Below are positions 6,503-51,333 of a DNA stretch of 55,545 bases, piece by piece; positions within the stretch are counted from its first letter, which is position 1; the number at the start of each line of letters is the position of its first letter. Below the pieces are notes generated by a model. It did not search any database, had not been told where the DNA came from, and saw only the letters and a list, made by a program, of their open reading frames with translations. A program made the position numbers and the translations under genes. The stretch is from Patescibacteria group bacterium (GTDB lineage: Bacteria; Patescibacteriota; Minisyncoccia; JACROR01): assembly GCA_038065295.1 (NCBI GenBank), contig JBBTRG010000005.1:1-55545 (forward strand), given 5' to 3'.

Positions 6503-6504
6503 AT

Positions 6505-7218: not shown

Positions 7219-7240
7219 AATCTATTGATATATGCCATTG

Positions 7241-16868: not shown

Positions 16869-17972
16869 TCAAAAAAAATCCACGATAAGACGCGCGATTT
16901 TCCTTATATCGGATTTTGCCAGCTTCGTATGGCACGGCAACGTGATACAAGAATTATGATATTCGTCCATATTTTTTAATTGAATATTTTTATAACCGTG
17001 CTTTCTATAATAAGGATGCGAATATACTGCGGGATAATGAAAATTAACTCCTATGCCATTTTTTAAAAGATATCTGTAAAGTGGCCATCTCATCTTGGGA
17101 TCTTTCACTCGTATCACATAAATATGCCATCCGTGATAACACTGCGGTAATTCTTTAGGCAACATAATCTCATTCGTCTCGCGCAATAGATTGCCATACC
17201 AGGAAACCACCGCGCGCCTTTTTTCAATAAACCGGTCCAGCTTCTTCAACTGACTTTTGCCCAAAGCCGCCTGCATATCCGTCATTCTGTAATTATAACC
17301 GAGCTCGGTCATAACATTTTGTCCGTTATCATCCTTATGAATCCCGTGGCTTCGCAGAGATATTAACTTTTCGTAAAATCTTTTATCGTTGGTCACGATG
17401 GCTCCACCTTCTCCAGTTGTCATGGACTTTACCGGATGGAAGCTAAACACAGCCGCATTTGAATACCGGCAACTTCCAATCTTGAATTTTTTATAACTCG
17501 CGCCCAGCGCGTGGCACGCGTCTTCAATAACAAACAATTTGCGCTTTTGGGCAACTTTCCATACGACCTCCATTTCGCATGGATGCCCCGCAAAATGAAC
17601 CGGAATAATTGCTCTAGTTTTGCGGGTAACCAATTTTTCTATTTCTGCTTCATCAATATTAAAAGTATCGCTTCTAATATCGCAAAAAACCGGGCGCGCG
17701 CCAACAGCTAACAACATATTGCTTGTCGCAACAAAGGTATTGGGAGTGGTAATCACATCATCTCCTCCCTTTAATCCCGCGGCGAGATAAGCAAGATGCA
17801 GTCCAGCCGTTCCATTGGAAACCGCCACGGCATATTTCACGCCACAGTAACTGGCAAGCGCTTTTTCAAAAGATGCTATCGCCGGCCCTTGAGTCAGCCA
17901 ATCGGAGCGCAAGACATCGACAACCGCCCCAATATCATCTTTGTCGATAGACTGGCGCCCATAAGGAATCAT
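16869..17972 (-). CDS. pseC: UDP-4-amino-4,6-dideoxy-N-acetyl-beta-L-altrosamine transaminase (DegT family)
   Basis: MIPYGRQSIDKDDIGAVVDVLRSDWLTQGPAIASFEKALASYCGVKYAVAVSNGTAGLH is the classical PseC N-terminus. The PLP Lys lies in SFHPVKSMTTGEGG. Confidence 0.85.
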   Translation of the reverse strand: MIPYGRQSIDKDDIGAVVDVLRSDWLTQGPAIASFEKALASYCGVKYAVAVSNGTAGLHLAYLAAGLKGGDDVITTPNTFVATSNMLLAVGARPVFCDIRSDTFNIDEAEIEKLVTRKTRAIIPVHFAGHPCEMEVVWKVAQKRKLFVIEDACHALGASYKKFKIGSCRYSNAAVFSFHPVKSMTTGEGGAIVTNDKRFYEKLISLRSHGIHKDDNGQNVMTELGYNYRMTDMQAALGKSQLKKLDRFIEKRRAVVSWYGNLLRETNEIMLPKELPQCYHGWHIYVIRVKDPKMRWPLYRYLLKNGIGVNFHYPAVYSHPYYRKHGYKNIQLKNMDEYHNSCITLPCHTKLAKSDIRKIARLIVDFF

Positions 17973-35666: not shown

Positions 35667-37490
35667 CTATTTACTAAAAGTATATAAAAACAAGTTATTT
35701 GAATCAAAAATTAATTGAACGCCGTCCAACTGGCCAACAATATTTTTAGGCAACGAGCCTACCGATAAAATATAATCCAAGCGATACTTGTTCAATTCCG
35801 CCTTAAAATCTCGCGCCATAAATTGGCGATAGTTTTCTGGAAATTCTTTTAATCTTTGTTCTAATACGCGGTCTGAAAAGTCCGGAAAATCATTTGCCGG
35901 ATGGCCATAAACTCCCAGCCAATTGGAATAAAGATGGCCTCTCGCCTCTCTCTTATTTGCTTGCAAATATTCGTCTATCGCGTCCGCTTCAACGCCATTA
36001 AACCGAAGAGCAACGAGATAGCCATGAGAAGATCTTTCATTGGGCATGAGCGATGGCGCTTCAGTGGAAGAATAACGATTACAATGAGTAAAAGCGGGGA
36101 TCATAACATTCAACATCTTGCTCTCCGGCCCGTCTTCTCGAACCAACACCACACAATCTTTTTCTTTTTTATTCAGCTCATCAAACAATGGAGCGTATGA
36201 TTGCAAATTGCGATAATACCCATAAGACCCGCTGTTATAAACGCTCGCCTGCGTATAAATACCAAACGACAAAGACGCCAATATCACTGCAAAGACTCCC
36301 GCGCGCCACAACCACGCAGACTCTTTTCTGACAATATTGTAAAGCAAAACCATAAAAACTATCATCGCCAAAGGAATAGAATACTGCACAAAATGATACG
36401 GCCAAACGGTTCTGCCGGTAATAATCTGCTGGCTATATGTCCACAACGACCCCAAAATGAGAGCCAAACAAAACCAGTGCCAATCTTTGAATGAACCAAA
36501 AATCCTGTCCTTCATAGCCGCGGCCTTATCCGAATGTTTTAATACGGAAAATAAAACTACAACGATATACAGGGCTAAAATCGCAAGCGTCAACTTATTC
36601 AAAAGCGGATAATGCGTATAAAACAAGCCGCTTCGCAAAAGCGAATCTTCATACCATGGACTTTGGCTTACTTGCCATGAGATATACCAATAAGGCGAAG
36701 CTAAAAGCAGTCCAAACCACACAACGGCAATTAAATTTTTTATTATTCGGTAATCTTTTTTTAAGAGATAAATTAAAACAAGCATAGCAACAACGGAAAC
36801 GGCCATGCCCCAGCTGAAAAAATAACTGCCAATCATTAAAGCTAAAAATGTGGCCGCGCCGACTATGGTTTTTTTATCGCTTTTCCCCCGAATGATAAAC
36901 CAGATAAAAATCAAAAATGACATTAAAAACATCGCTCCCAAAATGGGATTAACCGGACGCGCCCAAATTAAAAAATTACCCGCCAAGTTTTGCTCTCCCG
37001 ATAAAAAAGATAAAATGCTGCGGTAATCAACCAAATCGTAACCGAGCGTCACCAGTAACGCGCCCGCGACAGCGTTGATTTTTTTAGAAAATAATTGATT
37101 GTCGCCAGAATCAGAAAGGTGGTAAATCAGAAAATAAACCAGCAAGAATAAAATAAACGGGAAGAAAAATCTGCTCGCAATAATGACATTGATCGGCGAG
37201 ACATTTAACACCATGCTCGGAACGGCATAAAACATCTCTCCTATCGGAGGCGCAATCGGCCACTCGTCTTTATATTCAAACATAAACGGCGAACCAAGCA
37301 TCGGATGGCCATCTAAAATCTCGCGAATTCTCGCCAAATAACTTATCTCATTGGCCGTCTGCATCATCGGTATGCCCTTATAGTGATCCCCGAGTGACCA
37401 TAAAAAAAATATGCCCGGAATGATATAAATCAAACCCACGAACACCGCGAAAAAAACCGCCAAATAGTGTTTCTTGAAAAAATCCGTCAT
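35667..37490 (-). CDS. large polytopic membrane protein, possibly GT-C-like glycosyltransferase
   Basis: 607 aa with about 12 hydrophobic helices and then a ~190-aa soluble C-terminal domain. The first loop 'TANEISYLARIREIL' resembles the ArnT/PMT loop-1 motif, but with NE instead of DE. Confidence 0.4.
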   Translation of the reverse strand: MTDFFKKHYLAVFFAVFVGLIYIIPGIFFLWSLGDHYKGIPMMQTANEISYLARIREILDGHPMLGSPFMFEYKDEWPIAPPIGEMFYAVPSMVLNVSPINVIIASRFFFPFILFLLVYFLIYHLSDSGDNQLFSKKINAVAGALLVTLGYDLVDYRSILSFLSGEQNLAGNFLIWARPVNPILGAMFLMSFLIFIWFIIRGKSDKKTIVGAATFLALMIGSYFFSWGMAVSVVAMLVLIYLLKKDYRIIKNLIAVVWFGLLLASPYWYISWQVSQSPWYEDSLLRSGLFYTHYPLLNKLTLAILALYIVVVLFSVLKHSDKAAAMKDRIFGSFKDWHWFCLALILGSLWTYSQQIITGRTVWPYHFVQYSIPLAMIVFMVLLYNIVRKESAWLWRAGVFAVILASLSFGIYTQASVYNSGSYGYYRNLQSYAPLFDELNKKEKDCVVLVREDGPESKMLNVMIPAFTHCNRYSSTEAPSLMPNERSSHGYLVALRFNGVEADAIDEYLQANKREARGHLYSNWLGVYGHPANDFPDFSDRVLEQRLKEFPENYRQFMARDFKAELNKYRLDYILSVGSLPKNIVGQLDGVQLIFDSNNLFLYTFSK

Positions 37491-38209
37491 TTTTTTATTC
37501 CAATAAAATAAAAAATGTGGGCTATTTTTTTCGCGGATTCATAGCGAACGAAAATAAAATCCAAAAGATTTAACGGAGCAAAAATAACCATAAAAAACAG
37601 AGTTAAAATTTGCTGGAGAAGATCCGAATTAAACGATAACGCCATGGCCAGCCACTCTCTTAAAATATAAGTCATGGCATTGGTGGGTCCCACCGCGATG
37701 CCCAACTCTTCTTCTTTGAAATCTTTCAATAACTCCCTCAAACCAGAGGTTGTCCATCTCTGATAGTCTCCCGGAGAAGAATGAAAACCGACTATAAACG
37801 GAGTGGAGATATAAACCATGCCATCAGGCTTCAAAACTCTATACATCTCTCTTACTGCCGCTATTGGATCTTTCACGTGCTCCAACAGGCATTCGGCGAT
37901 TACGGCATCCGCGTAATTATCTTCGAAAGGAAGTTGGCATACATCGGCCACAACATCCACTCCCGCATAAGGAGAGATATCCACATTGACAACGTCTTCC
38001 CTCACCTTTTTAACGCCAGCGCCCAAATTAATAATTACAGAACCAACGGGAAGATGCGCGATGCTTTTTTTGGCGGACTTGCCGACAAATATCCCCATTG
38101 TATAGTAAAGAAAAAGGAAAAAACTGGGATACTTTTTTAGAAAATTTTTCAACTTTAATATGAAACCGTCCGGCGTTTTGTCTTCCATTCTATGGTTATT
38201 TTTTTCCAT
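37487..38209 (-). CDS. class I SAM methyltransferase (Methyltransf_11-like) with hydrophobic C-terminus
   Basis: VINLGAGVKKV, ADAVIAECLLEHVKDP, YRVLKPDGMVYISTP, and a C-terminal LTLFFMVIFAPLNLLDFIF. Confidence 0.8.
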   Translation of the reverse strand: MEKNNHRMEDKTPDGFILKLKNFLKKYPSFFLFLYYTMGIFVGKSAKKSIAHLPVGSVIINLGAGVKKVREDVVNVDISPYAGVDVVADVCQLPFEDNYADAVIAECLLEHVKDPIAAVREMYRVLKPDGMVYISTPFIVGFHSSPGDYQRWTTSGLRELLKDFKEEELGIAVGPTNAMTYILREWLAMALSFNSDLLQQILTLFFMVIFAPLNLLDFIFVRYESAKKIAHIFYFIGIKK

Positions 38210-39191: not shown

Positions 39192-39926
39192 TTACTCAAG
39201 CCATTTCTCAAAATCTTTCAAAAATTGACCGACAACTTCATCGGTTTTAAAGTGCGAGATCATGTTGGGGAAAAACTTCGGAGGAACGGTAACAATGTGC
39301 GCGCCAGCCATGCCAGCTTCTATCACATCAGTACCATGTCGGATACTGCCGACAATAATCTGCGCGTCAGGATATGAATCATCAAGCATGGAACGAACGG
39401 TACGCACCACATGCGGAGGATCAAAGTCCCCCTCTTTCATGGCGCCCTTTTTGATAAGAGCCGACTTTGCTTCGGTCCAGTTCGGATGCATTCCGCCATC
39501 GCCTATGCGTCCCCAAAAAAGACTCACATAACTCGCGCCTGCCGCCGCGGCCATCAATGCCTGCGACACGCTCATATTGCAGGTACAATTAACCGAGAAA
39601 CCATTCTGGCTCAATTCTCGTATCACCTCCAGCTCGTCCCAGCCGACAGGTATTTTGATGCTCAATTGAGGATGTTTGAAAGTTTCTTTAAAATTCCGCG
39701 CTTGTTTCAAAATCTCTTGAGGATCCTTGGAAAATACCTCCACGCTCAAATGAGCACTTGGCTGATATTTATTAATAAGATCCAGGATTTTGCCCACATG
39801 CGCATTAAAGTTGCCTTTTGGCTCTTTAGCTAAAAGCGAAGGATTGGTGGTAACGCCCCTAACAAATCCGCGCTTAAGCGCCGCCTCAATATCCGGTAAG
39901 CGTGCCGTATCCACAAACAATTTCAT
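39192..39926 (-). CDS. tal: transaldolase / fructose-6-phosphate aldolase family (TalC/FSA type)
   Basis: MKLFVDTARLPDIEAALKRGFVRGVTTNPSLLAKE, a Schiff-base Lys context LSIKIP, and VSLFWGRIGD. Confidence 0.85.
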   Translation of the reverse strand: MKLFVDTARLPDIEAALKRGFVRGVTTNPSLLAKEPKGNFNAHVGKILDLINKYQPSAHLSVEVFSKDPQEILKQARNFKETFKHPQLSIKIPVGWDELEVIRELSQNGFSVNCTCNMSVSQALMAAAAGASYVSLFWGRIGDGGMHPNWTEAKSALIKKGAMKEGDFDPPHVVRTVRSMLDDSYPDAQIIVGSIRHGTDVIEAGMAGAHIVTVPPKFFPNMISHFKTDEVVGQFLKDFEKWLE

Positions 39927-40474
39927 CGTACACCTCCTTTTTCCATACTTAAAATCATCTTCGCTGCGGACAATAGATCATTAGAAGCATAATCACGAAC
40001 AATACCGATATTATAATTTGTCCTTACTAATACGGTTTTGCATCCTGCCGCCTGTCCCGCCAGCATATCGTTTTGAGTATCGCCGACCATATACGACCGG
40101 CTAAGATCAATGTTCCACATTTCTGCCGCCAAAAACAGCATGCCGGGCTTCGGTTTTTTGCAGGGACAATTAACCTCCCTGGTGTGGCGGCACATAAATA
40201 TGTCGTCAAAAGCTAAAGTGCGGACTTGTCTGTGAATTTTTTGCCATTCTTCCTCCAGTATATGGCCGTAAGCCACATCCGGCTGATTGGTAATCAAAAT
40301 ACAGAGAAATCCATTTTTCTTTAAACGAGACAACGCTTCAAGCGTGCCGCTTAAATCCAAAAAGGCAAATTCTTGAAAATGGAAAGGTGCGGTGGGGAGG
40401 GTAAATCCTTCATGATAAACCGGCTTCACCACCACACCATCGCGATCAATAAAAACCGCGCGCTTTTTACTCAT
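39923..40474 (-). CDS. gmhB: D-glycero-D-manno-heptose 1,7-bisphosphate phosphatase (HAD-IIIA)
   Basis: AVFIDRDGVV, ITNQPDVA, and a Zn motif CRHTREVNCPCKKPKPGM. Confidence 0.8.
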   Translation of the reverse strand: MSKKRAVFIDRDGVVVKPVYHEGFTLPTAPFHFQEFAFLDLSGTLEALSRLKKNGFLCILITNQPDVAYGHILEEEWQKIHRQVRTLAFDDIFMCRHTREVNCPCKKPKPGMLFLAAEMWNIDLSRSYMVGDTQNDMLAGQAAGCKTVLVRTNYNIGIVRDYASNDLLSAAKMILSMEKGGVR

Positions 40475-41096
40475 ACTGATTAATCAGCTCTTTCAAGCGA
40501 AAAGTAATCAGGTGCGCAAGCAACACGTGCATGGATTCAACCAACGGAGTTGATTCCGCCGGAACCACCACGCAATGATGGCACATGGTTTTCATGACTC
40601 CGCCGTCAAACCCGGAGAAACCGATAGTAATGCCGCCATTGTCTTTAACATACTGAATCGCTTGCAATAAGTTCTGCGACCAAGCGCCATCTTTGTCTGA
40701 TCCTGAACCGCCATGAACGCTGAAGGCAATTAAAATATCACCGGGCGCATAAAAGGTGCGCAATTGCTCAACAAAAAGACTTCCCTTGCCCCAGTCGTTC
40801 ACCAAAGCGCTAGCAAGAGGGATATTGTCCGCCAGAGAAATGGCTGCAATCCCCGGGCACCCCATATTGGAAACAACCGTCTTGACCAAATCCGCCGCAA
40901 AATGAGTAGCAGTGGAAGCAGAACCGCCGTTGCCAATTAAAAACACCTGCTGGCGGCCGATCCAGGCATTAAATAACGCCTTTGTGATGGCTTCCAACTG
41001 CGACTGGGCCGATTTGAGACATTCTGTAGTCCGTGCAGTATCGGCAAAAAACTTTTGGTAATAAGCGTCTGTGGTTTCATCAAAAGTCATATCCAT
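40467..41096 (-). CDS. gmhA: phosphoheptose isomerase (SIS domain)
   Basis: FLIGNGGSASTATHFAADL. GGAGG lies immediately upstream of ATG 41096. Confidence 0.85.
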   Translation of the reverse strand: MDMTFDETTDAYYQKFFADTARTTECLKSAQSQLEAITKALFNAWIGRQQVFLIGNGGSASTATHFAADLVKTVVSNMGCPGIAAISLADNIPLASALVNDWGKGSLFVEQLRTFYAPGDILIAFSVHGGSGSDKDGAWSQNLLQAIQYVKDNGGITIGFSGFDGGVMKTMCHHCVVVPAESTPLVESMHVLLAHLITFRLKELINQYE

Positions 41097-41173
41097 CCTC
41101 CTTTATGTATTTAGTTGTAAAATAGCTTTCTTAACTTATCACCATAAAAGCACAAAAGCTAAATTTTATCAAT

Positions 41174-41201
41174 ACAAAAAGCGGGCAGTAACTGCCCGCT
41201 T
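41174..41201 (-). terminator. Rho-independent terminator after the heptose kinase gene
   Basis: On the minus strand: stem GCGGGCAG/CTGCCCGC (8 bp; extends to AAGCGGGCAG/CTGCCCGCTT if the flanking residues, which overlap the T-run, are counted), 3-nt loop, followed by TTTTTGTATT. It starts 7 nt after the stop at 41208. Confidence 0.7.
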
Positions 41202-41207
41202 GAATGC

Positions 41208-42194
41208 TTAAAGATTTATCACCGTGGTTCGCGCGCCTTGGTCGTCAATACGCAGGTTCATCTCGCGCATTCCAAAGTCCGCCAACGCGCGCCGCACGGA
41301 TTGCTTATCGTCCTCCGAACGACAATAAAACATAAAATATCCGCCTCCGCCGGCGCCCATTATCTTGCCGCCAAGTGCTCCGGCTGTTTTGGCTGCCGCA
41401 TATACCACATCCAGCCATTCATTGGTCATATTGACAGATATTTCTTTTTTAATGTTCCAATGCTCATCCAAAAGCCGTCCGAAATCGTCTAGAGCTCCGC
41501 GCTCAAATGCCATAAGAATATCCTGACCAATGTGCTTCGTGCGATGTTTCAATTCAAGCACCCGCTTGTGGCTTTGCGCATCCAAGAGCGATTTGCTGTT
41601 ACGCCGTATGCCAGTGTAATAAAACAGAGTGTTTTGCCAAAATGCTTCTGCGGTTTCCGGCTTGATAGCCGGTCTGCGCACAGTCACTTGACCATCCTGC
41701 CCTATATCCAGCACCATAAATCCGCCCAAAGCGCATGCGTACGGATCTTGCTTGCCATCCGGCAGTCCAAGATTTTGTGTAAGCACAAACGACTGCTCCG
41801 CCGCCACTAAATTACTAATCTCTCTGCCTTTATATAAAGACAGGCCTTTTAGCAATCCGACAGAACACGCGCCGGACGAGCCAAGTCCAGTTCCGGCAGG
41901 AGTGTCCGCCGTAAAAGAAACAAGCACTTTATTTTCTATACCCATCATCCTTAGGGCCTCTCTGCCAATAGTATGCTTGATCCTGTCAGCAGACGGCTCA
42001 TACTCATACTGCATATACTGCATATGGACATGATCATCACTTAGAGGTTTCTTAATCACAATATCCATATACATATTGATAGCTGCCGCGAATATAAATC
42101 CGCCGTACTTTTCATAATACGAAGGCAGATCGGTAGAACCGCCGCCGAGCGGCAACCTAAAAGGCGTTCTGCTTAATATAATAGATGGTGGCAT
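41208..42194 (-). CDS. hddA: GHMP sugar kinase, D-glycero-alpha-D-manno-heptose 7-phosphate kinase-like
   Basis: ILSRTPFRLPLGGGSTDLPSYY, GHMP motif PAGTGLGSSGACSVGLL, and GAGGGGYFMF. It lies in the heptose gene context. Confidence 0.7.
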   Translation of the reverse strand: MPPSIILSRTPFRLPLGGGSTDLPSYYEKYGGFIFAAAINMYMDIVIKKPLSDDHVHMQYMQYEYEPSADRIKHTIGREALRMMGIENKVLVSFTADTPAGTGLGSSGACSVGLLKGLSLYKGREISNLVAAEQSFVLTQNLGLPDGKQDPYACALGGFMVLDIGQDGQVTVRRPAIKPETAEAFWQNTLFYYTGIRRNSKSLLDAQSHKRVLELKHRTKHIGQDILMAFERGALDDFGRLLDEHWNIKKEISVNMTNEWLDVVYAAAKTAGALGGKIMGAGGGGYFMFYCRSEDDKQSVRRALADFGMREMNLRIDDQGARTTVINL

Positions 42195-42301
42195 TTTATT
42201 GCTCCCTTATTAAAGTTTAAAAGTGCCGCTTTTTATACTGTAACTTATTTTGACATTAGCCCGTTTTCATTCTTTACGCAAGCGTTAATCCGGCGAGCTC
42301 T

Positions 42302-43231
42302 TTATGCCTTAGCGGTATTTTTCTTGGCGTATCTGTCAACTTGATTAGCAATATTTACAATACGCGCGCCTATATTTCCATCGGCATACCGGACATTTTT
42401 TTTCTTGACGGCTTTTAGAAATGTTTCTAATTCCATTTCGAGCGGTGTTGTTTTCAATTCATAAAATTGCTTACCGCCGCCTCTTATTTCAATAAAATTT
42501 CTCCCAAAGTCGCAATGGATTATTTTATCGCGAAGATAGAAATCAAGTATTCTCTCTTTCTCTTCTCCTCGCCATCCAAGCTCAAACACAGCATACATTC
42601 CATTCGGGTAATATAATTCGGCCGCAGTCACGCGACTCCTGACTCTGCCCGAAATAATAATCGGCATCTTTTCAAAAATGTCATCTAAGATATCAAAAAG
42701 ATGCAAATTATCCAGCGCAGCGGTTTTACCTTTTTTCCAAGTGTTAAACGGACTGATAAATTCTCCCCTTATATAATAAGGTTGGTTGCTTTTTGAGCTA
42801 AACATTAATTTGAGAGCTTTTATAATTGGATGAAACCTAAAAATATGCCCCACCATCAGCACTCTTCCGTAGACATCGGATAGTCGTTTGAGCTCGCGCG
42901 CCTGCCGAACAGTTTCAGCCAATGGCTTTTCCACGAAAACATTGGCATAACGCAAACATTTTTTTGCCAGCTCAAAATGGGTATTGGTAGTGGTCACGAT
43001 ATCAACCGCATCAACATGTTTAAGCGTATTCACGTCAATATTGTCAAAAACGGGAATTCTGTATTCTTTTTTTATTTTTTCTCTTAATGCTTTGCTTTTT
43101 TCCACCACGCCAACCAAATTGATCTTTTTCAGCTTTTCCAATGCGAGCCAAACGCGCAAATGATTTTTCCCAAACCAGCCAGCGCCAATAAGCAATATAT
43201 TTATAGGATGCATATCATTTGTTATCAACAA
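42302..43231 (-). CDS. Gfo/Idh/MocA family oxidoreductase
   Basis: INILLIGAGWFGKNHL and VFVEKPLA. Confidence 0.7.
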   Translation of the reverse strand: MLITNDMHPINILLIGAGWFGKNHLRVWLALEKLKKINLVGVVEKSKALREKIKKEYRIPVFDNIDVNTLKHVDAVDIVTTTNTHFELAKKCLRYANVFVEKPLAETVRQARELKRLSDVYGRVLMVGHIFRFHPIIKALKLMFSSKSNQPYYIRGEFISPFNTWKKGKTAALDNLHLFDILDDIFEKMPIIISGRVRSRVTAAELYYPNGMYAVFELGWRGEEKERILDFYLRDKIIHCDFGRNFIEIRGGGKQFYELKTTPLEMELETFLKAVKKKNVRYADGNIGARIVNIANQVDRYAKKNTAKA

Positions 43232-44156
43232 TATCGCGAATTATATATGGCGAACTGCCAATGGAGGCGTAATGCATACGCAATAACATTTCGGCAAGCA
43301 ATCCCATCATAAAAAGCATGATGCCAAGAGTGATAAAAAGCGCGCCAAGCTCCGGAAGAGGCGATTCCGTAAAATTTACTATGCCCATGACACGCAAAAT
43401 AATTGAGGTGCCCACGGATATTGCCGATAATATCATGAAGAAAACTCCCCATCCGCCAAAAAATCTAAGTGGTTTTGAAAAATACTTAATCAAAAAAGCG
43501 AAGCTTACCAAATCAAAACCTGCTTTTAACATATTAGTAATTTTAATTTTTGCCTGACCGGACTTCCTAAAATAATTGGAAACCGGAACCTCGCATACCC
43601 TCGCGCCTCGCTCTTTGGCCACAACCGGAAGAAAAACCTGAACATTCCCCCACAATCTAAAATCTTTAATAAATTTGCTACGATACGCTTTTAAGCCGCA
43701 TCCGTAATCATGAAGTTTCAACCCCAACAACAATCTGACCACCATATTGGCAAATTGCGAAAACACAATGCGAGTCCAATGATCATTTCGTTTTTGCCGC
43801 CAGCCCACTGAGACATCGTATCCTTCTTCTATTTTTTGAAGCAATAATGGAATTTCCGCCGGATCGTCCTGCAAATCCGCATCTATGAAAATAATGATAT
43901 TGCCACTTGCGCGTTCAATGCCCGTATCAAACGCGGGGGTTTCTCCATAATTTCTTTGGTGAGTAATAAGCGTTAACGGCTTGAGTTGCCTGGCAATTTC
44001 ATAGGTATCATCGCTTGATCCGTCATTAACAAAAATAATTTCATAAGGAGATTTTTGTTTTTCCAGAACCGCTACAAGACGCTCATGAAGCTCTCGCACT
44101 GTTCCTGCTTCATTAAAAATTGGCACTACAACTGAAATTGTGTTTTTTTCGCTCAT
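43215..44156 (-). CDS. GT2 polyprenol-phosphate glycosyltransferase (DPM1/ArnC/GtrB-like, two C-terminal TMs)
   Basis: ISVVVPIFNEAGTV, IIFVNDGSSDDT, IIFIDADLQDDP, and a C-terminal pair of helices. Confidence 0.8.
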   Translation of the reverse strand: MSEKNTISVVVPIFNEAGTVRELHERLVAVLEKQKSPYEIIFVNDGSSDDTYEIARQLKPLTLITHQRNYGETPAFDTGIERASGNIIIFIDADLQDDPAEIPLLLQKIEEGYDVSVGWRQKRNDHWTRIVFSQFANMVVRLLLGLKLHDYGCGLKAYRSKFIKDFRLWGNVQVFLPVVAKERGARVCEVPVSNYFRKSGQAKIKITNMLKAGFDLVSFAFLIKYFSKPLRFFGGWGVFFMILSAISVGTSIILRVMGIVNFTESPLPELGALFITLGIMLFMMGLLAEMLLRMHYASIGSSPYIIRDIVDNK

Positions 44157-44203
44157 TGATGCAAATCTTGTTATTGCAAACTAAATTCCTACATAGCTAA
44201 ATA

Positions 44204-44234
44204 TACAAAAAAAGCGGGGTCTATTCAACCCCGC
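44204..44234 (-). terminator. Rho-independent terminator after the radical SAM gene
   Basis: On the minus strand: stem GCGGGGT/ACCCCGC (7 bp) with a 7-nt loop, followed by TTTTTTT. It starts 11 nt after the stop at 44245. Confidence 0.7.
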
Positions 44235-44244
44235 ATCAATAAAA

Positions 44245-45771
44245 TTAATCCTCGTTGCCGCGCCATCGATTACCGATACTCGCCTTGAGCCGCATGGCAA
44301 CATGTTCTTCGGTATTTACGGATCGCCACGCCCAGTCACGCAACTCCAAAATTCGCTCCGGTGCCACCACGGTATTTTGCATAACAGCATTCTTCCAATT
44401 CATAGCGTCCGGATCAAAATCTCTATCTAGATGTCCGCCCTGAATTGCCATTTCAAATAGCTTACTGCCGGGAAAAGGGATAGGAATAAAGAATGTGCAA
44501 TAAGCGGCACCGGCTTCCACCAAGCGCCTACCCAGTTCCACGCTTTGCATCATCTCCGCTTCGGTCTCATCCGGAAAACCGATCATCATATTAACCGGAC
44601 AGGTTATGCCAATACTAGAAGCGGTGCGCATAAGATCAACCACATCAAAAGTCTGCAAATTAAGCTTCGCGGTAGCGTATTTGTCCAAGATCCTCTGCGA
44701 TCCCGATTCCACCGGAAAAACTATCTGATTAAATCCTGATGACTTGAGTAACTCTAGATATTCTATGTCCGGCTCCATCTTGCCGTCCGCTCCTCGCTTT
44801 TGGAAATGGGCCAAATTGACACCGTTCACATCGGCGATCTCAAGACCCATGCCGGTCAACTGGCCGAATATGGTTTTTACTCTCGCCTTTTTCGCCAATA
44901 AGCTGTCATCTTCAAAATATAGCTTTTTCACCCCCAGAGAACGCAAAATTGCGATCTCCTCCATCACTCTTCCCACCGACTTAAGTCTAAGCGCTCCCGT
45001 GCCATTTTCGTCGTCATCTTTTTCCATGGAAATATGACAATAAGTACAACGGAAAGGACAACCGCGCGAAGTCATTATAGGAGCATAACGCGTTCCAATT
45101 GAAGGTATAACGCTATGCGGAGAAGCGATGCGATCATAATGAACAAAGGGTAATTTGTGCCACGCCGGCATGGGCAGTCCATCCAACTTGGAATAATAGT
45201 CGTCTTGTCCGTACGCATTTTTGACATACTGGCCATCTTTTTTGTGCGTAATACCAGGTACCCCGCTAAAATCATGGCCAAGCGCTAGATTTGACAATAG
45301 ACGCACGATGATCTTTTCACTCTCCGTCATACAAATTACGTCTACATTGCCGCTGTCTAGAAAACGCCTCGGCATATTACGGGCGTTCACTCCTCCGGCT
45401 ATCACCAAAATGGAAGGATTAATCTGCTTAACGGCAGAAGCAACCTCCAAAGCCATTCTTGTCTGAGGAGTAAAGTTGGAACTTATGCCAACAACATCAT
45501 AGTCGCCATTTGCGACCACTTCCTTGATACGCCCTATAGACATGCCTATGCGCACCAAACCGTTTGGCTGCATAATACTTTTATAAAAAGTGTCTTCCAG
45601 CCTGTCTTCCATCGTACCGACGGAAGCATCTAGAATATCGGTTTCAAAACCGGCCAGCTCCAGGGCTCCAGCTAAATAAAGCGGACCCAAAGAACCATCT
45701 GGCCTTGGCGTTTCAATCGACATCAGTTGATTGGGCGGATAAACAAGCAAAACTTTGAGATGCTTGATCAC
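44245..45771 (-). CDS. B12-binding-domain radical SAM protein (class B, methyltransferase-like)
   Basis: N-terminal B12-like domain (LKVLLVYPP..., DVVGISSNF, ILVIAGGV) and a canonical SRGCPFRCTYCH cluster motif. The protein is 508 aa. Confidence 0.85.
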   Translation of the reverse strand: MIKHLKVLLVYPPNQLMSIETPRPDGSLGPLYLAGALELAGFETDILDASVGTMEDRLEDTFYKSIMQPNGLVRIGMSIGRIKEVVANGDYDVVGISSNFTPQTRMALEVASAVKQINPSILVIAGGVNARNMPRRFLDSGNVDVICMTESEKIIVRLLSNLALGHDFSGVPGITHKKDGQYVKNAYGQDDYYSKLDGLPMPAWHKLPFVHYDRIASPHSVIPSIGTRYAPIMTSRGCPFRCTYCHISMEKDDDENGTGALRLKSVGRVMEEIAILRSLGVKKLYFEDDSLLAKKARVKTIFGQLTGMGLEIADVNGVNLAHFQKRGADGKMEPDIEYLELLKSSGFNQIVFPVESGSQRILDKYATAKLNLQTFDVVDLMRTASSIGITCPVNMMIGFPDETEAEMMQSVELGRRLVEAGAAYCTFFIPIPFPGSKLFEMAIQGGHLDRDFDPDAMNWKNAVMQNTVVAPERILELRDWAWRSVNTEEHVAMRLKASIGNRWRGNED

Positions 45772-45825
45772 GATAGACCTCCTTGTTAAAGAACCTGACT
45801 ATGTATAAGTATCTTTAAAAAAAGA

Positions 45826-46497
45826 TTACTTACTTTTATTGAATTTGTCAACCTCTGCTTTGGTAGAAAAAGACAGATTATCTCTACCTTGCACTGCCAC
45901 CACCTTATGATTTTTTATAAATTTTTTCATCATGGAAGACACAGGATACTCTCCGCTACGATGCCGAACCGGCTTGTATCGGAAAATATCCGCATTGATC
46001 ACCATCAGACCGCCCACCACAAAATTGGACGCTGGATGTTTTGGTTTTTCCACAACATCAATCAGTCTTCCGCGCCTAAGAGTGGCCACCCCCGACTCTT
46101 CCGGCTTATCATAATATCTGGAAAGCCAGCTAAATTCATGTGCCAAACAATCGCGAATTTCTTTTTTAGTCACCAGCTCATCCGCGTAAATAAGCAAAAA
46201 ACGCTCCTTATTTTTAAAATACGGCCTGGCAAGCAAAGTGGCCGGACCGGTTCCATTATTTTTTTTCTGAACTACATAATAAACTTTTTTGCCCGCATAC
46301 TTGTTTCCCAAAAACTCTTTAATTTGAGCCCTCTTATGCCCAATCACAACAAGAACCTCATCTACTTCGCTCGGTAGGGCGTGAAAAATATGTTCTAAGA
46401 AAGTTTTACCGCCAACTTTTAACAAAGATTTCGGTTTGGTTAAAGTGAGCGGGCGCATTCTTTTTCCCTTACCCGCCGCTAAAACAACCGCCTTCAT
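45826..46497 (-). CDS. hddC: sugar-1-phosphate nucleotidyltransferase, heptose-1-phosphate guanylyltransferase-like
   Basis: [28 protein letters not shown]; 223 aa. Size and context fit HddC, but nucleotide specificity is not readable from sequence. Confidence 0.6.
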
Positions 46498-47606
46498 GTG
46501 TTTTTATTTTTATATTCCTGAATACTGCTCACCACATACTCGATCTCTTTTTCTTCCAGCTCTGGAAAAACCGGGAGCGACAAAATTTCTTCAGCCGCGG
46601 TTTCAGTAACTGGAAAATCTCCTTTTTTGTAGCCAAGTTCTTTATAGGCCGGCTGGAGATGGATTGGAATGGGATAGTGCGCAAGAACGAAAATCTGTTT
46701 ATTCCGGAGATGCTCCATCAACCCATCCCTCTTTTTGTCCCTAATAACATACAAATGAAAGACCGGCTCAACATAATCCAGAGTTGTCGGCGTTACAACA
46801 TCCGACCCCCTCAGTAGTTTATTGTACAGTTTGGCGTTCTTACTGCGCGCGGCATTCCACCCGTCAAGATACTTCAATTTTACCCGCAGTATCGCTGCCT
46901 GTATGGCATCCAGCCGCGAATTAACCCCACCCTTAATCAGATAGTGGTCTCTTTCTTTTCCTCCGTACATCCTATACATTAACGCCAGATCAGCGAGCCC
47001 TTGGTCGTTCGTAACTATGGCGCCGCCATCTCCGTATGCTCCCAAATTTTTCCCAGGAAAAAAACTAAACGCGGCAATATCCCCCAACCCGCCCACTTTC
47101 TTTCCCCTGTATTTAGCTCCATGCGCCTGACACGCGTCTTCTAAAATTCTAAGATTGTGCTTCGCGGCAATTTTTTTTATCGGATCCATATCCGCCGGCT
47201 GACCATACAGATGAACCGGAATAATTGCTTTGGTCCTGGGAGTAATTTTTTCTTCTATTTTCAAAACGTCAATATTATACGTTTCGGAATCTATATCCAC
47301 AAAAACGGGCTTCGCGCCTAATGTAGAAATGCATAATGCCGTAGCCACAAAAGAGTTAGGAACGGTAATAACTTCGTCTCCGGGCTGAATGCCGAGCGCC
47401 TTTAAAGATAAAATTAAGGCATCTGTTCCTGACGCCACGCCCACGCAATATTTCACATCACAAAATTCCGCAAACTCTCGTTCAAAACTCTTAAGCTCTT
47501 CGCCCAAGATATAATCTCCATTATCGAGCATCTTCTGAATAGCGGCATCAAGCTCTTTTTTATAGCATCGATACTGCCTTCGCAGATCAACAAAATCAAT
47601 CTTCAT
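46494..47606 (-). CDS. DegT/DnrJ/EryC1 family sugar aminotransferase
   Basis: [33 protein letters not shown], with the PLP Lys in [15 protein letters not shown]. Confidence 0.9.
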
Positions 47607-47616
47607 ATAATCTTAA

Positions 47617-48303
47617 TTACGTTTTAAAAACAAAAATTTTATAACCGAAAAAATTGCCAAAAAATGCTACCGGTATCAACATGACAAAAGCCATGTTTGC
47701 CCATATTTTTGAATCAATTCCCTGTGGCGCCCCTATGGTGTTAATTATTATATGCAATAAAAAGATGTTTAGTAAAGAAGTTGCGGTTGTTACGGTAAAA
47801 AACTTAACATATTCTATCTTTGTCTGATTAATATGATGGGCCCCGAAAGTCCAAAATTTCTGCCAAAAAAAACTTTGAGTTATCGTAATGGCAAAGGCAA
47901 TGGCAAAAAAAATATCCGCAAGCCATCCTTCGGCAATACCAGTAATTAAAATAAGAACATTAAAAATCCCCGCACTCAAAAAAGTATTCAACCAACCAAT
48001 AATGCCATACTTACCTATCTTAAAAAGAATGGGCCACTTATAAACAGCAAGGCGATAACTTAAATAAAGGCTCGCAACGGAAATAGCTGGCATAAAAATC
48101 ATCCATAATGCCAAAACTAAATAGGCCGGCCATTGATCTCGCAAAACAGCCAGCTCAAAAAAGCCTAAATTTTTCCATACTGGCAGACTTAAAAGCGCTA
48201 TAAGTTCTCCGGCGATAATGGCGCTCCAAAAATCTGTTTTTGAAAATTTTATCCCCTTAGAAATTTCGTTTGTAACGAAATTGGCCTCATCAAAACTTTG
48301 CAT
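47617..48303 (-). CDS. GtrA-like membrane protein with N-terminal two-helix extension
   Basis: The C-terminal ~130 aa (FKIGKYGIIGWLNTFLSAGIFNVLI...FFGYKIFVF) fit the 4-TM GtrA pattern. The preceding ~90 aa add extra helices. Confidence 0.65.
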   Translation of the reverse strand: MQSFDEANFVTNEISKGIKFSKTDFWSAIIAGELIALLSLPVWKNLGFFELAVLRDQWPAYLVLALWMIFMPAISVASLYLSYRLAVYKWPILFKIGKYGIIGWLNTFLSAGIFNVLILITGIAEGWLADIFFAIAFAITITQSFFWQKFWTFGAHHINQTKIEYVKFFTVTTATSLLNIFLLHIIINTIGAPQGIDSKIWANMAFVMLIPVAFFGNFFGYKIFVFKT

Positions 48304-48313
48304 AAGCGCTTTT

Positions 48314-50077
48314 TTAATCTAATCTGTAAATAGCCACCACCGGCCCCGCATGATTCATTTTCCTCAAATTGTAAAAAGGATGCCTCCAGATTTCTAAATC
48401 CATACTAAATGTACTTGGACCAGCGTTAGCAGGAAAAATCTTAATTAAATTTTCTTCTTTTACATGAAACTGGCGGGCTTCTTCTATTGCTTTCATGTAC
48501 TTTGCCTGATCGCCCCAACTGATTACGGCATAATCAAAATGCTTGTTTAAAACCTCGGCGGAGACGCCTTCTCTGTAATTAGACATCATTAAAACATAGT
48601 AATTCGGCTTAGGATATTTATCATCGCCGACTGACAATAAATAATCCTGCCCTCTTAAGAAAAAACCTGGCGTATAAATCTTGACATCCTGTATTGACTC
48701 TCTGTTTTCATTTATGGGCACCGGGCTGAAATTAACTATTCTGACTCCCTGCGGAAGATTATTGTGGATCCATTCTTTAGCCAAAACTATGGAGCCTGGT
48801 TGTATTAACCAATAATCCCATAAAGCCACTAAGTATACTGGATATAAAAAAACAATGGTTAGTAAAAAAATTTTTATCCCATAAAAAATAACGCTTACGG
48901 TAAAATTTATTTTTTTACTAATAAAATTATTCTTATAAAAATAATAAATGCCGTAAGCAGATATTATAGCCATAAAAGGTATAATCGGTACAATATAATG
49001 TTCTTTTATGCTGTTGCTCCCAACCACCGGACCTATGACAAAATAATAACCCAATATAAAAGAACTGAATATATAAAATAAATTTCTTTTATATAAGAAA
49101 AAGGGGATTAAACTTAAAATAAATATTATCGTGAGTGTCGGTCCGGTTTCGAATAATACTTTTCCGTAATCGGTCATGCTTGTCCAAAAATCAATGCTGC
49201 CTGTCATGCCCGACACGTCGCCGACTACCGCCGTCCCCGCTTTTATTGATTGACCAACATAATTTATAAACCCGTAAGGATTGAGATAATAAACGAATAA
49301 AATCATCATGATAACGACTAAATTGAAAAGCCAGAAATTTTTGTTTTTTATAAAAATATCCCCGAATGGTTTTTCTTTATTTTTCAAATAATGAGCCGTT
49401 AAAAATGGCAAATAAATTAATATGCCGATAAAATGTGTACCAAAAGAAATGCCGGTTAAAAGCGCTATTTTGAGATAATCTCTGAATCTAGTGTATTCTT
49501 TTTCGTAAAAATCCAAAATAAAATGGAAGGTGACTAAAATCACAAATATCTGAGGAAGCCACACTCGACCGAAATGAGACAATTCTACAAATATAAGATT
49601 GGTGGCAAGCAAAAACGAAGCAGCCAAAGAAATGAACCTGTTGTTAAACAGCCTTTCACAAATTCTGTAAACCAAATACACCGAAACCGCCCCCAAGCAT
49701 ACCGAAATAAATCTCGCCATTGGCAACAATTTTCCATAATGCAGTATGCCAAACTCCTTCAACGCTTCTAAGCTGGTAAACAGGCCGGAAAACCTCAAAA
49801 AGGCGAGTAAAGCAATAAAAAACGGCAAATAGATATAGGCACCTAAAGGCATGTGATACATGGTCGGGTAATCCGGCCTCAAGGAGGGTTCGGCTATCAT
49901 TTTCAAAGTAGCCGCCATAAGCACCGTTTCATCGGCGACCGTATTCGGCAATGGGTAATTATAAAAAATGCCCACGACATTCAACACGACAAATAATACT
50001 AAAATAAAAACTATGCCATATTTTTCTAATACAGCGGAGCCGAATATGCTGATTATTCTTGATAGATTCATAAACAT
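48314..50077 (-). CDS. GT-C fold glycosyltransferase (ArnT/PMT-like, GT39/GT83 type)
   Basis: 587 aa with a loop-1 motif VADETVLMAATLKM (DE...A..M), more than 10 TM helices and a soluble C-terminal domain. Confidence 0.7.
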   Translation of the reverse strand: MFMNLSRIISIFGSAVLEKYGIVFILVLFVVLNVVGIFYNYPLPNTVADETVLMAATLKMIAEPSLRPDYPTMYHMPLGAYIYLPFFIALLAFLRFSGLFTSLEALKEFGILHYGKLLPMARFISVCLGAVSVYLVYRICERLFNNRFISLAASFLLATNLIFVELSHFGRVWLPQIFVILVTFHFILDFYEKEYTRFRDYLKIALLTGISFGTHFIGILIYLPFLTAHYLKNKEKPFGDIFIKNKNFWLFNLVVIMMILFVYYLNPYGFINYVGQSIKAGTAVVGDVSGMTGSIDFWTSMTDYGKVLFETGPTLTIIFILSLIPFFLYKRNLFYIFSSFILGYYFVIGPVVGSNSIKEHYIVPIIPFMAIISAYGIYYFYKNNFISKKINFTVSVIFYGIKIFLLTIVFLYPVYLVALWDYWLIQPGSIVLAKEWIHNNLPQGVRIVNFSPVPINENRESIQDVKIYTPGFFLRGQDYLLSVGDDKYPKPNYYVLMMSNYREGVSAEVLNKHFDYAVISWGDQAKYMKAIEEARQFHVKEENLIKIFPANAGPSTFSMDLEIWRHPFYNLRKMNHAGPVVAIYRLD

Positions 50078-50379
50078 TAAACGACTCCGGGCTTATCCAA
50101 AGTATTTTTTTTATGATTTCTGCGAATTAAAACTAAATTTCTGATGTAAATCGTTAAAGCAAGGCCCTGCCCCAAAATAAACACCGGATCTTTGATGTGC
50201 AGGGCGTAAATCAAAATTATCAAACCGCCCACAATACTAAAATACCAAAATGTTATCGGCACTACGCTGTTGCCAGCCCTCTCCGAGGCGATCCATTGCA
50301 CGATAAACCGCATAAAAAATGCGAATTGTCCAACTAATCCCAAAATGAGCCAAAAATTTATATCAAAACCAAACAACAT
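50077..50379 (-). CDS. LAB_N (lipid-A-disaccharide synthase N-terminal-like) small membrane protein
   Basis: 100 aa with 3 TM helices. GLVGQFAFFMRFIVQWIASE...PITFWYFSIVGG is the LAB_N pattern commonly paired with ArnC-like GT2. Confidence 0.65.
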   Translation of the reverse strand: MLFGFDINFWLILGLVGQFAFFMRFIVQWIASERAGNSVVPITFWYFSIVGGLIILIYALHIKDPVFILGQGLALTIYIRNLVLIRRNHKKNTLDKPGVV

Positions 50380-50382
50380 AAA

Positions 50383-51333
50383 TTAGTTATTTTGAATTCT
50401 ATCCTGAATATCATAGACCTTGTCTTTGGTTACAGCAAAATAGTTTTTAGCAAGCATGTCAGCCAAAAGTCCAAACACTAAAAACTGCGTGCCAATTAAA
50501 AATGCGAACAAGGTGAGTTGCGTTAAAACTGTATCGGATAAATCTAAACCGTAAAATAGTTTTTGATATGTGACCCAAATGCCTGCAAAAATGGAAATTA
50601 TGATTAAAAATAGACCAAAGCCTCCAAATAAATGTAGCGGCCTACTGGCATATTTTTTCCAAAACCACACAGACAACATATCCAATATCCCTCTTATGCC
50701 TCTACGCCAATTATATTTAGTTTGGCCGGTCTTTCTTGGTCGATGATTAACGACAATTTCCCCTATTTTAAATCCTTTAATATTGAGGATGGCGGGAATA
50801 AAACGATGCATTTCGCCAACCAAATCCACGCTCTTAAAGCACTCGCTTTTATAAATTTTAAGCGTGCAACCGCTATCATGTATGCCATCATTGAGAAGAA
50901 TCCTCCTAATAATCGCTGCGCACCTTGAGGCGAAACGCTTTGAAAATGTATCTTTACGATTTTTTCTCCATCCAGACACTATATCCAATTTTTCTCCCTC
51001 CAACGCCTCAATTAACTTTGGTATATCAGATGGATCATTTTGTCCATCCCCATCCATAGTAACAATATATTCTCCGATAGATGCTTTAATGCCGGCGTCT
51101 ATCGCGGCAGTCTGCCCAAAATTTCTACGAAAACGAATAATTTTTATAGGTGATAATTTTCTAAGATTCTCAAATGTTTTATCCGTTGAACCGTCGTCAA
51201 TGAAAATAATCTCGTAGCCACATCCAAGCCCTTGCAAAACCTGTATAACTTCTTTATGTAATTCGGTTACCGAATTCTGCTCATTATAAACCGGAATTAC
51301 TAAGGATATTTTCATTTGGAGCGGCGGTACCAT
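50383..51333 (-). CDS. GT2 polyprenol-phosphate glycosyltransferase (ArnC/GtrB-like)
   Basis: ISLVIPVYNEQNSV, IIFIDDGSTDKT, IVTMDGDGQNDP, and two C-terminal TMs. An alternative start is ATG 51315 (MKISLV). Confidence 0.85.
   Translation of the reverse strand: MVPPLQMKISLVIPVYNEQNSVTELHKEVIQVLQGLGCGYEIIFIDDGSTDKTFENLRKLSPIKIIRFRRNFGQTAAIDAGIKASIGEYIVTMDGDGQNDPSDIPKLIEALEGEKLDIVSGWRKNRKDTFSKRFASRCAAIIRRILLNDGIHDSGCTLKIYKSECFKSVDLVGEMHRFIPAILNIKGFKIGEIVVNHRPRKTGQTKYNWRRGIRGILDMLSVWFWKKYASRPLHLFGGFGLFLIIISIFAGIWVTYQKLFYGLDLSDTVLTQLTLFAFLIGTQFLVFGLLADMLAKNYFAVTKDKVYDIQDRIQNN

Follow-up and report, generated by a model that had tools for sequence, protein, structure and literature searches.

The window analysed here is the whole 55,545-nt contig JBBTRG010000005.1 (contig C5 of assembly GCA_038065295.1) of a Patescibacteria group bacterium, whose genome is 636 kb in size and 98.7% complete; window DNA also occurs in groundwater metagenomes. 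Between positions 39192 and 47606, nine open reading frames (ORFs) lie on the minus strand. Pfam and NCBIfam profiles assign them to a short transaldolase of the TAL_FSA family, a HAD-IIIA phosphatase, a SIS-domain isomerase, a GHMP kinase, a Gfo/Idh/MocA oxidoreductase (Gfo), an ArnC-like family 2 glycosyltransferase (GT2a), a B12-binding radical S-adenosylmethionine (SAM) enzyme (rSAM), a sugar-1-phosphate nucleotidyltransferase (NTP_transferase) and a DegT-family aminotransferase (DegT). The genes, families and positions are exactly those of the original prediction, which was made from the sequence of the stretch and saw in them a GDP-heptose route with its own transaldolase and an added set of tailoring enzymes. 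The comparison reported here suggests a transaldolase-primed higher-sugar pathway, coupled to lipid-carrier glycosylation, that would make a nucleotide-activated sugar of octose type, a reading we hold with an even balance of belief and doubt.

The five-enzyme sugar-activation module, transaldolase included, proved as real as had been proposed. The SIS, GHMP, HAD-IIIA and NTP_transferase genes are clustered within 7.3 kb, and the transaldolase-HAD-SIS-GHMP-NTP block reappears in metagenome contigs as well as in ten further class genomes, a recurrence that places the arrangement beyond chance. Two samples underlie these comparisons: 101 genomes of the class, and 80 metagenome loci chosen by their kinase alone (genomes, contigs and loci carry G, C and L numbers below).

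The transaldolase is an obligatory and co-inherited part of this module and does not belong to central metabolism. It was assigned to the module because it is the sole TAL_FSA gene of the genome, because the pentose-phosphate genes (RpiB, Rpe and a split transketolase) stand together in a separate, transaldolase-free operon on contig C1, and because its gene overlaps the HAD gene by 4 nt, as the HAD gene overlaps the SIS gene by 8 nt. A transaldolase match was obtained in 15 of the 101 class genomes and a related kinase in 18, and 86 genomes are without the transaldolase; in a phylum sample, 14 of 401 genomes gave a match at E ≤ 1e-20. The transaldolase lies within ~16 kb of the kinase (mostly < 5 kb; 15 kb in G076) in G044 and in every one of the ten genomes whose kinase shares 38% identity or more with the window kinase, and all 11 window-type modules in the class sample possess it. 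Seven class genomes with a more distant kinase (28-35% identity) gave no transaldolase match in the genome, and transaldolase-less modules were confirmed at loci of six of them (the G022 locus is not included). Both module types occur in G082, on different contigs. In the 12 other genomes in which the transaldolase neighbourhood was examined (three weak matches excluded), the gene stands beside sugar-activation genes and never beside the RpiB-Rpe-transketolase operon. Among the metagenome loci, a transaldolase was present within 4.4 kb in 32 of the 80, and where a locus extends for 5 kb or more on each side, 11 of 17 carry one.

It had been proposed that the transaldolase supplies sedoheptulose-7-phosphate for GDP-heptose. 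This part of the proposal was not supported: a transketolase is present in the window genome and in 10 of 10 relatives checked (5/5 of each module type), so the supply of sedoheptulose-7-phosphate does not depend on the transaldolase, and modules without one exist in the same class.

The transaldolase was also seen in other company; where this kinase is missing, its neighbours are again sugar-activation genes. At L078 (G334:C9, 7799-14005), the transaldolase (66% identity) and SIS isomerase (54%) are joined to an ADP-heptose-style kinase/adenylyltransferase, an HldE-like fusion of a cytidylyltransferase-like N-terminus and a PfkB C-terminus, in place of the GHMP, HAD and NTP genes; a gene of the UDP-glucose dehydrogenase (UGDH) family, a Gfo gene and an inositol-monophosphatase-family gene complete the locus, whose order is HldE-like fusion, UGDH, Gfo, SIS, transaldolase, inositol monophosphatase. 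At L026 (G028:C1, 11095-15601), the transaldolase (45%) accompanies an RpiB::cytidylyltransferase-like fusion, a PfkB kinase, a 363-aa protein without an assigned family and a class II aldolase. The G028 genome has no GHMP kinase despite its 45%-identical transaldolase, and this locus may offer another way of activating the same ketose phosphate. A search of a phage collection with the transaldolase returned only cyanophage and Listeria-phage talC-type genes (~34% identity).

By kinase tree and isomerase loop, the transaldolase-linked modules are a lineage separate from the transaldolase-less, heptose-like modules. In a tree of the 18 class kinases, the transaldolase-less kinases form one clade (support 100/99), with the window kinase on the opposite side. 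In a tree of 60 rows, in which 42 metagenome rows were added to these 18, a 13-row transaldolase-less clade (SH-aLRT, an approximate likelihood-ratio test, 95) is set against a side that holds all 42 transaldolase-linked rows and five rows without the gene in the DNA covered. The isomerases divide similarly: 36 of 36 transaldolase-linked SIS proteins have an expanded SV(G/H)GG... loop (8-14 residues), and the canonical S-x-S-G-x-S loop was found in 10 SIS proteins, all from loci without a transaldolase. Ten further isomerases have the expanded loop but no transaldolase in the DNA covered, which is mostly in short contigs. The transaldolase-less modules also score higher than the window against the heptose models (HddA 153-155 vs 127, HddC 93-115 vs 54, GmhB 150 vs 115 bits); by these scores theirs would be the HddA-like clade, in trees that were built without a characterised HddA sequence. 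The expanded loop and the kinase clade provide simple sequence markers by which the two module types can be told apart.

Variants were observed within both lineages. Transaldolase-less modules, including L050 (G017), L051, L055 and L061, have the nucleotidyltransferase and GmhB fused into one protein of ~400 aa, and in L050 a gene for a Gmd-like 4,6-dehydratase separates the isomerase from this fusion and suggests that the route leads to a 6-deoxyheptose. On the transaldolase-linked side, the isomerase was seen in five loci with an rSAM orthologue, and in all five its loop is of the SVHGG subtype, never of the more frequent SVGGG subtype (the DNA covered around the G076 module contains no isomerase); the rSAM gene and the SVHGG loop may mark a sub-variant of the pathway.

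The core enzymes of the window show the same departure from heptose enzymes. The original prediction read the four families as GmhA, HddA, GmhB and HddC, the GDP-heptose route. Of this reading, the clustering of the families held, but every score is far under the curated NCBIfam cut-off (GmhA 84/209, HddA 127/600, GmhB 115/178 and HddC 54/300 bits), the isomerase loop is not canonical and the kinase falls outside the transaldolase-less clade. Aligned to GmhA (5ltz), the phosphate-binding loop of the window isomerase (FSVHGGSGSDKDGAWS) is expanded by 9 residues, with SVHGGSGSDKDGAWS in place of the S-x-S-G-x-S loop of GmhA. The nucleotidyltransferase, which is kept at 42-69% identity in the modules of five relatives, matches the archaeal GlmU-N (149 bits), AglF (119 bits) and RmlA-type (103 bits) models, all above HddC (54 bits), and the activated product is therefore written here as nucleoside diphosphate (NDP)-linked and not GDP-linked. 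The HAD phosphatase is 40-56% identical in relatives and has the DRDG motif and the C-x-H...C-x-C zinc loop of the GmhB type. In comparison with 3s0c, the enzyme has the transaldolase-type catalytic set (Asp, Glu, Lys, Thr, Phe), not the Gln/Tyr of fructose-6-phosphate aldolase. An insert of ~24 residues follows the GRIGDGG motif of the transaldolase (residues ~146-172), beside the phosphate-binding Arg; it is common to the closer relatives G094, G334, G018, G058, G079, G082 and G028, but neither the more distant transaldolases linked to modules nor the TalC-type enzymes of the PDB have it. The closest transaldolase among the sampled genomes is that of the same-genus genome G094 (82% identity).

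The tailoring genes differ in how tightly they are tied to the module. The rSAM protein has an N-terminal B12-binding domain and a radical SAM core with the CxxxCxxC motif (C238-x3-C242-x2-C245). Its orthologues (at least 63% identity) were found only in G094, G079 and G076, beside the kinase, other class B rSAM proteins in the sample reaching at most 32%; it is also present in metagenome loci L081 and L106 (618 and 578 bits), which have the SVHGG-type isomerase. It had been put forward as a methylating enzyme. Its domains agree with the class B assignment, but it fits no characterised methylase family: the best NCBIfam match reaches 160 bits against a cut-off of 575, the second best is HpnJ, a non-methylase (99 bits), and PDB matches stay at or below 33 bits. 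In the phage collection, the only relative is a 24%-identical protein of Streptomyces phage SF3.

The Gfo protein has an archaeal UDP-N-acetylglucosamine (UDP-GlcNAc) 3-dehydrogenase as its best NCBIfam match (99 bits, cut-off 450) and scores 60 bits against PDB 7bvj. Matches at E ≤ 1e-20 were obtained only in G018 and G058, inside transaldolase modules between the GT2 and kinase genes. In both genomes (L022, G018:C1, 6788-9422; likewise L023, G058), the Gfo orthologue is joined at its C-terminal end to a DAO-type FAD oxidoreductase, which makes up the second half of the resulting 647-aa protein; this fusion is preceded by a 227-aa soluble GT2 without the transmembrane (TM) helices of GT2a, and a UbiA-family prenyltransferase gene follows the transaldolase. 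DegT scores 404 bits against QdtB, 369 against 2oga and 303 against WbpE in the PDB, compared with 220 against perosamine synthase, 171 against ArnB and 128 against 2fn6. QdtB and WbpE are established C3-aminotransferases, and perosamine synthase and ArnB are C4 enzymes. DegT thus falls with the C3-aminotransferases, consistent with WbpB/WbpE-type logic. Within the class, its nearest relatives reach only 48-51% identity and show no specific tie to the module. A Gfo/DegT pair working as WbpB and WbpE do had been predicted; the C3 grouping of DegT agrees with it, but DegT is tied to the module in the window genome only.

Conservation of the gene set across genomes, proposed earlier as a check, was found for the five-gene core but not for the tailoring set as a whole. 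G094 and G079 have two short-chain dehydrogenase/reductase (SDR) genes and a different GT2 where the window genome has GT2a and Gfo. The core is conserved and the tailoring set is swapped between relatives, with the window genome combining Gfo, DegT and rSAM.

The features of the region are listed in Table 1. Upstream of DegT the gene run extends through GtrA, PMT_2, LAB_N and GT2b genes, and downstream of the transaldolase through two methyltransferases and a 607-aa membrane protein. Further overlaps join NTP_transferase to DegT (4 nt) and Gfo to GT2a (17 nt). The genes had been described as an operon. They do form one strand-run, but the region's three best terminator-like hairpins lie immediately past the stop codons of rSAM, GHMP and the transaldolase, and the run is therefore not a single operon. 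It probably comprises at least three transcription units, predicted to be GT2b to rSAM, GT2a-Gfo-GHMP and SIS-HAD-transaldolase. Terminator-like sites in the region number 23 in total, against 21 ± 5 in shuffles, i.e. no excess, and only the three strongest post-stop hairpins were used for unit boundaries.

Table 1. Genes and terminator-like hairpins of the region, in window coordinates
Feature	Position	Strand	Evidence
Candidate GT-C-fold transferase, 607-aa membrane protein	35667..37490	-	TM profile; structural neighbours
Class I SAM methyltransferase, between transaldolase and 607-aa protein	37487..38209	-	PF08241
Terminator-like hairpin, directly after transaldolase stop codon	39155..39182	-	12-bp stem + T tail
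TAL_FSA transaldolase, short, subfamily-5, TalC/LmbR-size	39192..39926	-	PF00923 3.9e-38
HAD-IIIA phosphatase, GmhB/LmbK type	39923..40474	-	NF006506 114.7 bits, cut-off 178
SIS-domain ketose-phosphate/aldose-phosphate isomerase, GmhA/LmbN-like	40467..41096	-	TIGR00441 84 bits, cut-off 209
Terminator-like hairpin, GHMP stop codon to SIS start codon	41179..41201	-	10-bp stem, 7 GC pairs
GHMP anomeric sugar kinase, HddA/LmbP-like	41208..42194	-	NF049969 127 bits, cut-off 600; PDB 3k85 134 bits
Gfo/Idh/MocA oxidoreductase, candidate sugar 3-dehydrogenase	42302..43231	-	PF01408
GT2a, ArnC/GtrB-like GT2, putative polyprenyl-phosphate sugar synthase	43215..44156	-	PF00535; NF007986 157 bits, cut-off 529
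Terminator-like hairpin, rSAM stop codon to GT2a start codon	44214..44234	-	8-bp stem, 6 GC pairs
B12-binding-domain rSAM, class B architecture	44245..45771	-	PF02310 + PF04055; CPFRCTYC at residue 238
Sugar-1-phosphate nucleotidyltransferase (NTP_transferase)	45826..46497	-	PF00483
DegT-family aminotransferase, C3-aminotransferase group by similarity	46494..47606	-	PF01041 3.8e-126
GtrA-family membrane protein, two-helix N-terminal extension; candidate flippase or carrier partner	47617..48303	-	PF04138; TM profile
PMT_2-type GT-C glycosyltransferase, ~11 TM helices	48314..50077	-	PF13231 1.1e-8; TM profile
LAB_N small membrane protein	50077..50379	-	PF07578 5.9e-31
GT2b, second ArnC-like GT2; first gene of predicted unit running down to rSAM	50383..51333	-	PF00535; NF007986 161 bits

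Genes of the kind used for export on a lipid carrier surround the core. GT2a, the polyprenol-phosphate GT2 that had been predicted, has an ArnC-like catalytic domain and two C-terminal TM helices, as does GT2b. Orthologues of GT2a (56-58%) stand beside the NTP and Gfo genes in G018 and G058, and GtrA orthologues (48-53%) lie near the module in G094, G018 and G079. In L024 (G079, 5507-7342), a GT4 (Glycos_transf_1) carries the GtrA domain at its C-terminal end, and in G094 the two are separate adjacent genes, with GT4 preceding GtrA. The PMT_2 protein has relatives of only 27-29% identity, which in G018 and G058 lie some 8-9 kb away from the module. The 607-aa protein matches no Pfam or NCBIfam family; it has about 9-10 TM helices and a soluble C-terminal domain. 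The Atlas clusters closest to it consist of unnamed ~600-aa proteins from Acidobacteriota and Peregrinibacteria. Among its structural neighbours in the Atlas are PMT_2 and PTPS_related clusters (TM-scores 0.58-0.66), for which reason it is read as a candidate GT-C enzyme, probably of an undescribed family. The protein is syntenic with the module in G094 and G079, and the SAM methyltransferase next to it has a 64-65% identical orthologue at the matching position in G079.

This part of the run resembles the Gtr and Arn systems (GtrB/ArnC, GtrA/ArnEF, GtrC/ArnT) in bringing together an ArnC-like GT2 with C-terminal TM helices, a GtrA-family protein and a GT-C enzyme, with scores under the equivalog cut-offs. 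Unlike those systems, the window has two GT2 genes, two candidate GT-C genes and a LAB_N protein. As a CPR (Candidate Phyla Radiation) bacterium, the organism is not expected to have lipid A.

The known pathway that the core brings to mind is that of the lincosamide antibiotics. The GDP-octose sub-pathway of Streptomyces lincolnensis and S. caelestis proceeds through LmbR/CcbR, LmbN, LmbP, LmbK and the guanylyltransferase LmbO, and then through LmbM, LmbL, LmbZ and LmbS. Sasaki et al. in 2012 and Lin et al. in 2014 reportedly described the formation of octulose-8-phosphate by LmbR from ribose-5-phosphate and a C3 donor, and later steps. We know of no other characterised pathway in which a dedicated transaldolase is combined with a SIS isomerase, a GHMP kinase, a HAD phosphatase and a nucleotidyltransferase, and such a sugar route is, as far as we are aware, so far known only from lincomycin biosynthesis.

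Compared by gene content, the window has the same five enzyme families, including the dedicated short transaldolase, and also a Gfo-type dehydrogenase and a DegT-type aminotransferase. Because its enzyme set equals LmbR/N/P/K/O, an octose-type sugar is the best reading of the module. The corresponding genes of the second lincosamide cluster encode a 222-aa transaldolase (CcbR), a 202-aa isomerase (CcbN), a UGDH-family dehydrogenase (CcbL), a dehydrogenase (CcbZ) and a DegT-type aminotransferase (CcbS; PMC4351081, PMC12945683). Transaldolase-linked relatives of the window module often add UGDH-family, Gfo and SDR genes (the LmbL, LmbZ and LmbM families), whereas transaldolase-less loci add SDR only. 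In the metagenome sample, UGDH-family genes and Gfo genes of the G334 type were seen with kinases of the transaldolase side alone, whereas SDR genes were seen on both sides; neither UGDH nor G334-type Gfo was found in loci with the canonical isomerase loop. With these genes of relatives, eight of the nine Lmb sugar-nucleotide families have a counterpart in the transaldolase-linked lineage taken as a whole. The window differs from the lincosamide route in having a B12-radical SAM gene and no UGDH-family or SDR gene, in a DegT that groups with C3-aminotransferases and with no known C6-aminotransferase, and in a product that would enter a polyprenol-phosphate/GT-C surface route of a 0.64-Mb CPR bacterium and not an antibiotic.

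Searched against 1.84 billion cluster representatives, the window kinase has its best 150 matches at 179-431 bits, all above PDB HddA 3k85 (134 bits). Of ten high-GC proteins from these best 150 matches that were looked up, four are named, none of them LmbP, and one is an Actinomadura 'galactokinase'. The published lmbK quantitative PCR primer qK-F (PMC6819324), searched against genome contigs, gave four unrelated matches and no Streptomyces record.

The pathway that we propose, with chain length, nucleotide, modification positions and acceptor read from families and synteny, would begin with the transfer by the dedicated transaldolase of a C3 unit from fructose-6-phosphate or sedoheptulose-7-phosphate onto ribose-5-phosphate, giving octulose-8-phosphate as LmbR does. 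The SIS isomerase, with its expanded phosphate loop, would convert this to the aldose 8-phosphate (LmbN-like), the GHMP kinase would phosphorylate C1 (LmbP-like), the HAD-IIIA phosphatase would remove the distal phosphate (LmbK-like) and the nucleotidyltransferase would form an NDP-octose (LmbO-like). In the window genome, Gfo and the C3-type DegT would probably introduce a 3-amino group, possibly at the sugar-phosphate stage, as in NtdC/NtdA, and the B12-radical SAM enzyme would add a further modification, for which C-methylation is the default guess. An ArnC-like GT2 would then load the sugar on polyprenyl phosphate, the GtrA-family protein may help in flipping, and a GT-C enzyme (PMT_2 and/or the 607-aa protein) would move the sugar to an envelope acceptor.

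Several observations weigh against this proposal. Its likeness to the lincosamide octose route comes from gene content and logic, not orthology, and LmbL-type (UGDH) and LmbM-type (SDR) genes are missing from the window. The best named matches of the SIS, GHMP and HAD proteins are the heptose enzymes GmhA, HddA and GmhB; Lmb-type enzymes would presumably match heptose enzymes best as well. A transaldolase can make sedoheptulose-7-phosphate. Five kinases on the transaldolase-linked side of the tree have no transaldolase in the DNA covered, four of them with at least 5 kb on both sides (the other, L140, is a 6.6-kb contig). As for the tailoring steps, DegT adjoins the module only in the window genome, with no match at E ≤ 1e-60 in same-genus G094 and none in the 80 metagenome loci, and the Gfo and DegT genes are 3 kb apart in different terminator-bounded units. 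The 607-aa protein was also considered as the module's dedicated transferase and set aside in that role, as it has 52-58% identical orthologues in the module-free genomes G064 and G010.

For the ketose phosphate made by the transaldolase, octulose-8-phosphate from ribose-5-phosphate is preferred, at the same even chance as the octose-type sugar, and sedoheptulose-7-phosphate is the less probable product. With the latter, the module would make NDP- (GDP-) D-glycero-D-manno-heptose, the transaldolase would only raise or balance the supply of its precursor, and Gfo, DegT and rSAM would lead to an amino and/or C-methyl heptose. This explanation, which we judge rather unlikely, draws on the GmhA, HddA and GmhB matches, on the GmhB-type zinc loop kept in the HAD protein, on the fact that sedoheptulose-7-phosphate lies within transaldolase chemistry and on the scarcity of transaldolases in the class, where pentose-phosphate fluxes would then be unusual in most genomes. 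It has to accommodate six class genomes with heptose-like modules and no transaldolase in the genome, all five of those checked having a transketolase; with a transketolase only, a transaldolase would be expected to drain and not to supply sedoheptulose-7-phosphate. The transaldolase-less modules are also those nearer to the HddA, HddC and GmhB models and those that retain the canonical GmhA phosphate loop, both module types coexist in G082, and every window score is under its NCBIfam cut-off. Four of the window's five enzyme families are those of the GDP-D-glycero-alpha-D-manno-heptose pathway of S-layer and capsule glycans (GmhA, HddA, GmhB, HddC); that pathway has no transaldolase, and the window stands apart from it in its expanded isomerase loop, in a kinase outside the HddA-closer clade and in a nucleotidyltransferase nearer to the GlmU-N and RmlA types than to HddC. 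That the transaldolase is a housekeeping pentose-phosphate enzyme, placed at the end of a glycan operon by accident, is very improbable: it is the only one of the genome and has ordinary transaldolase catalytic residues, but the gene is lacking from 86 of the 101 class genomes and matched in 14 of 401 in the phylum sample, stands beside sugar-activation genes and never beside RpiB-Rpe-transketolase in the 12 other genomes examined, and lies within 4.4 kb in 32 of the 80 kinase-picked loci.

A different doubt concerns the tailoring steps and is compatible with either chain length. Two pathways may be interleaved, in which case Gfo, DegT, the ArnC-like GT2, LAB_N/GtrA and PMT_2 would carry out an Arn/Gnn-like C3 amination of a UDP-hexose or UDP-N-acetylhexosamine and its lipid-carrier export, independently of the transaldolase module. 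The genes that the window has over same-genus G094 (Gfo, GT2a, DegT, PMT_2, LAB_N and GT2b) do read as an Arn-like parts list, and G094 has a different GT2 and two SDR genes in that place; UDP-GlcNAc 3-dehydrogenase is the best named match of Gfo, and DegT ranks with QdtB and WbpE and is elsewhere not module-specific. The confinement of Gfo orthologues to transaldolase modules, directly between GT2 and kinase, the 4-nt overlap of DegT with the module's sole nucleotidyltransferase gene and the Gfo score of 99/450 bits, far under the family cut-off, all speak against this, and we consider separate pathways improbable, to about the same degree as the heptose. With WbpB/WbpE, GnnA/GnnB and NtdC/NtdA, the window shares a Gfo/Idh/MocA protein and a DegT ranking with C3-aminotransferases; it differs from them in the distance of its Gfo (99 bits, and 60 to 7bvj), in the separation of the two genes by 3 kb and into different units, and in a substrate that would be a C7 or C8 sugar.

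Taken to its full extent, the octose proposal describes a Niyogibacteria-type CPR envelope that bears a 3-amino, radical-SAM-modified (e.g., C-methyl) octose made by lincosamide-type chemistry and delivered on polyprenol phosphate, a composite picture that we judge unlikely. If true, a straight-chain octose made through a transaldolase would be documented for the first time in a primary cell-surface glycan, as would the tailoring of such a sugar by a B12-radical SAM enzyme, and the widespread transaldolase-linked 'heptose' or 'GDP-heptose' cassettes of databases would be mis-named octose pathways. If the transaldolase-linked lineage makes octoses, a sugar class known only from an antibiotic would be a common surface building block of uncultivated bacteria, and the lincosamide sugar pathway would have an ancestor in primary metabolism. 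For CPR biology, the locus points to an elaborate and variable surface sugar, with amino, radical-SAM and methyl tailoring exchanged among close relatives, in organisms that are host-attached. In the library searched, no paper joins a transaldolase with GmhA and HddA. The present comparison sets the module against transaldolase-less ones from its own class, offers the isomerase loop as a marker, recovers the kinase split from metagenome loci sampled independently and finds that Gfo and rSAM, not DegT, are module-specific.

Elsewhere in the window lie another DegT gene (16887-17918, minus strand), with 38% identity to the DegT described above, and another, distant rSAM gene of the B12 type (19515-20624, plus strand; 26%).

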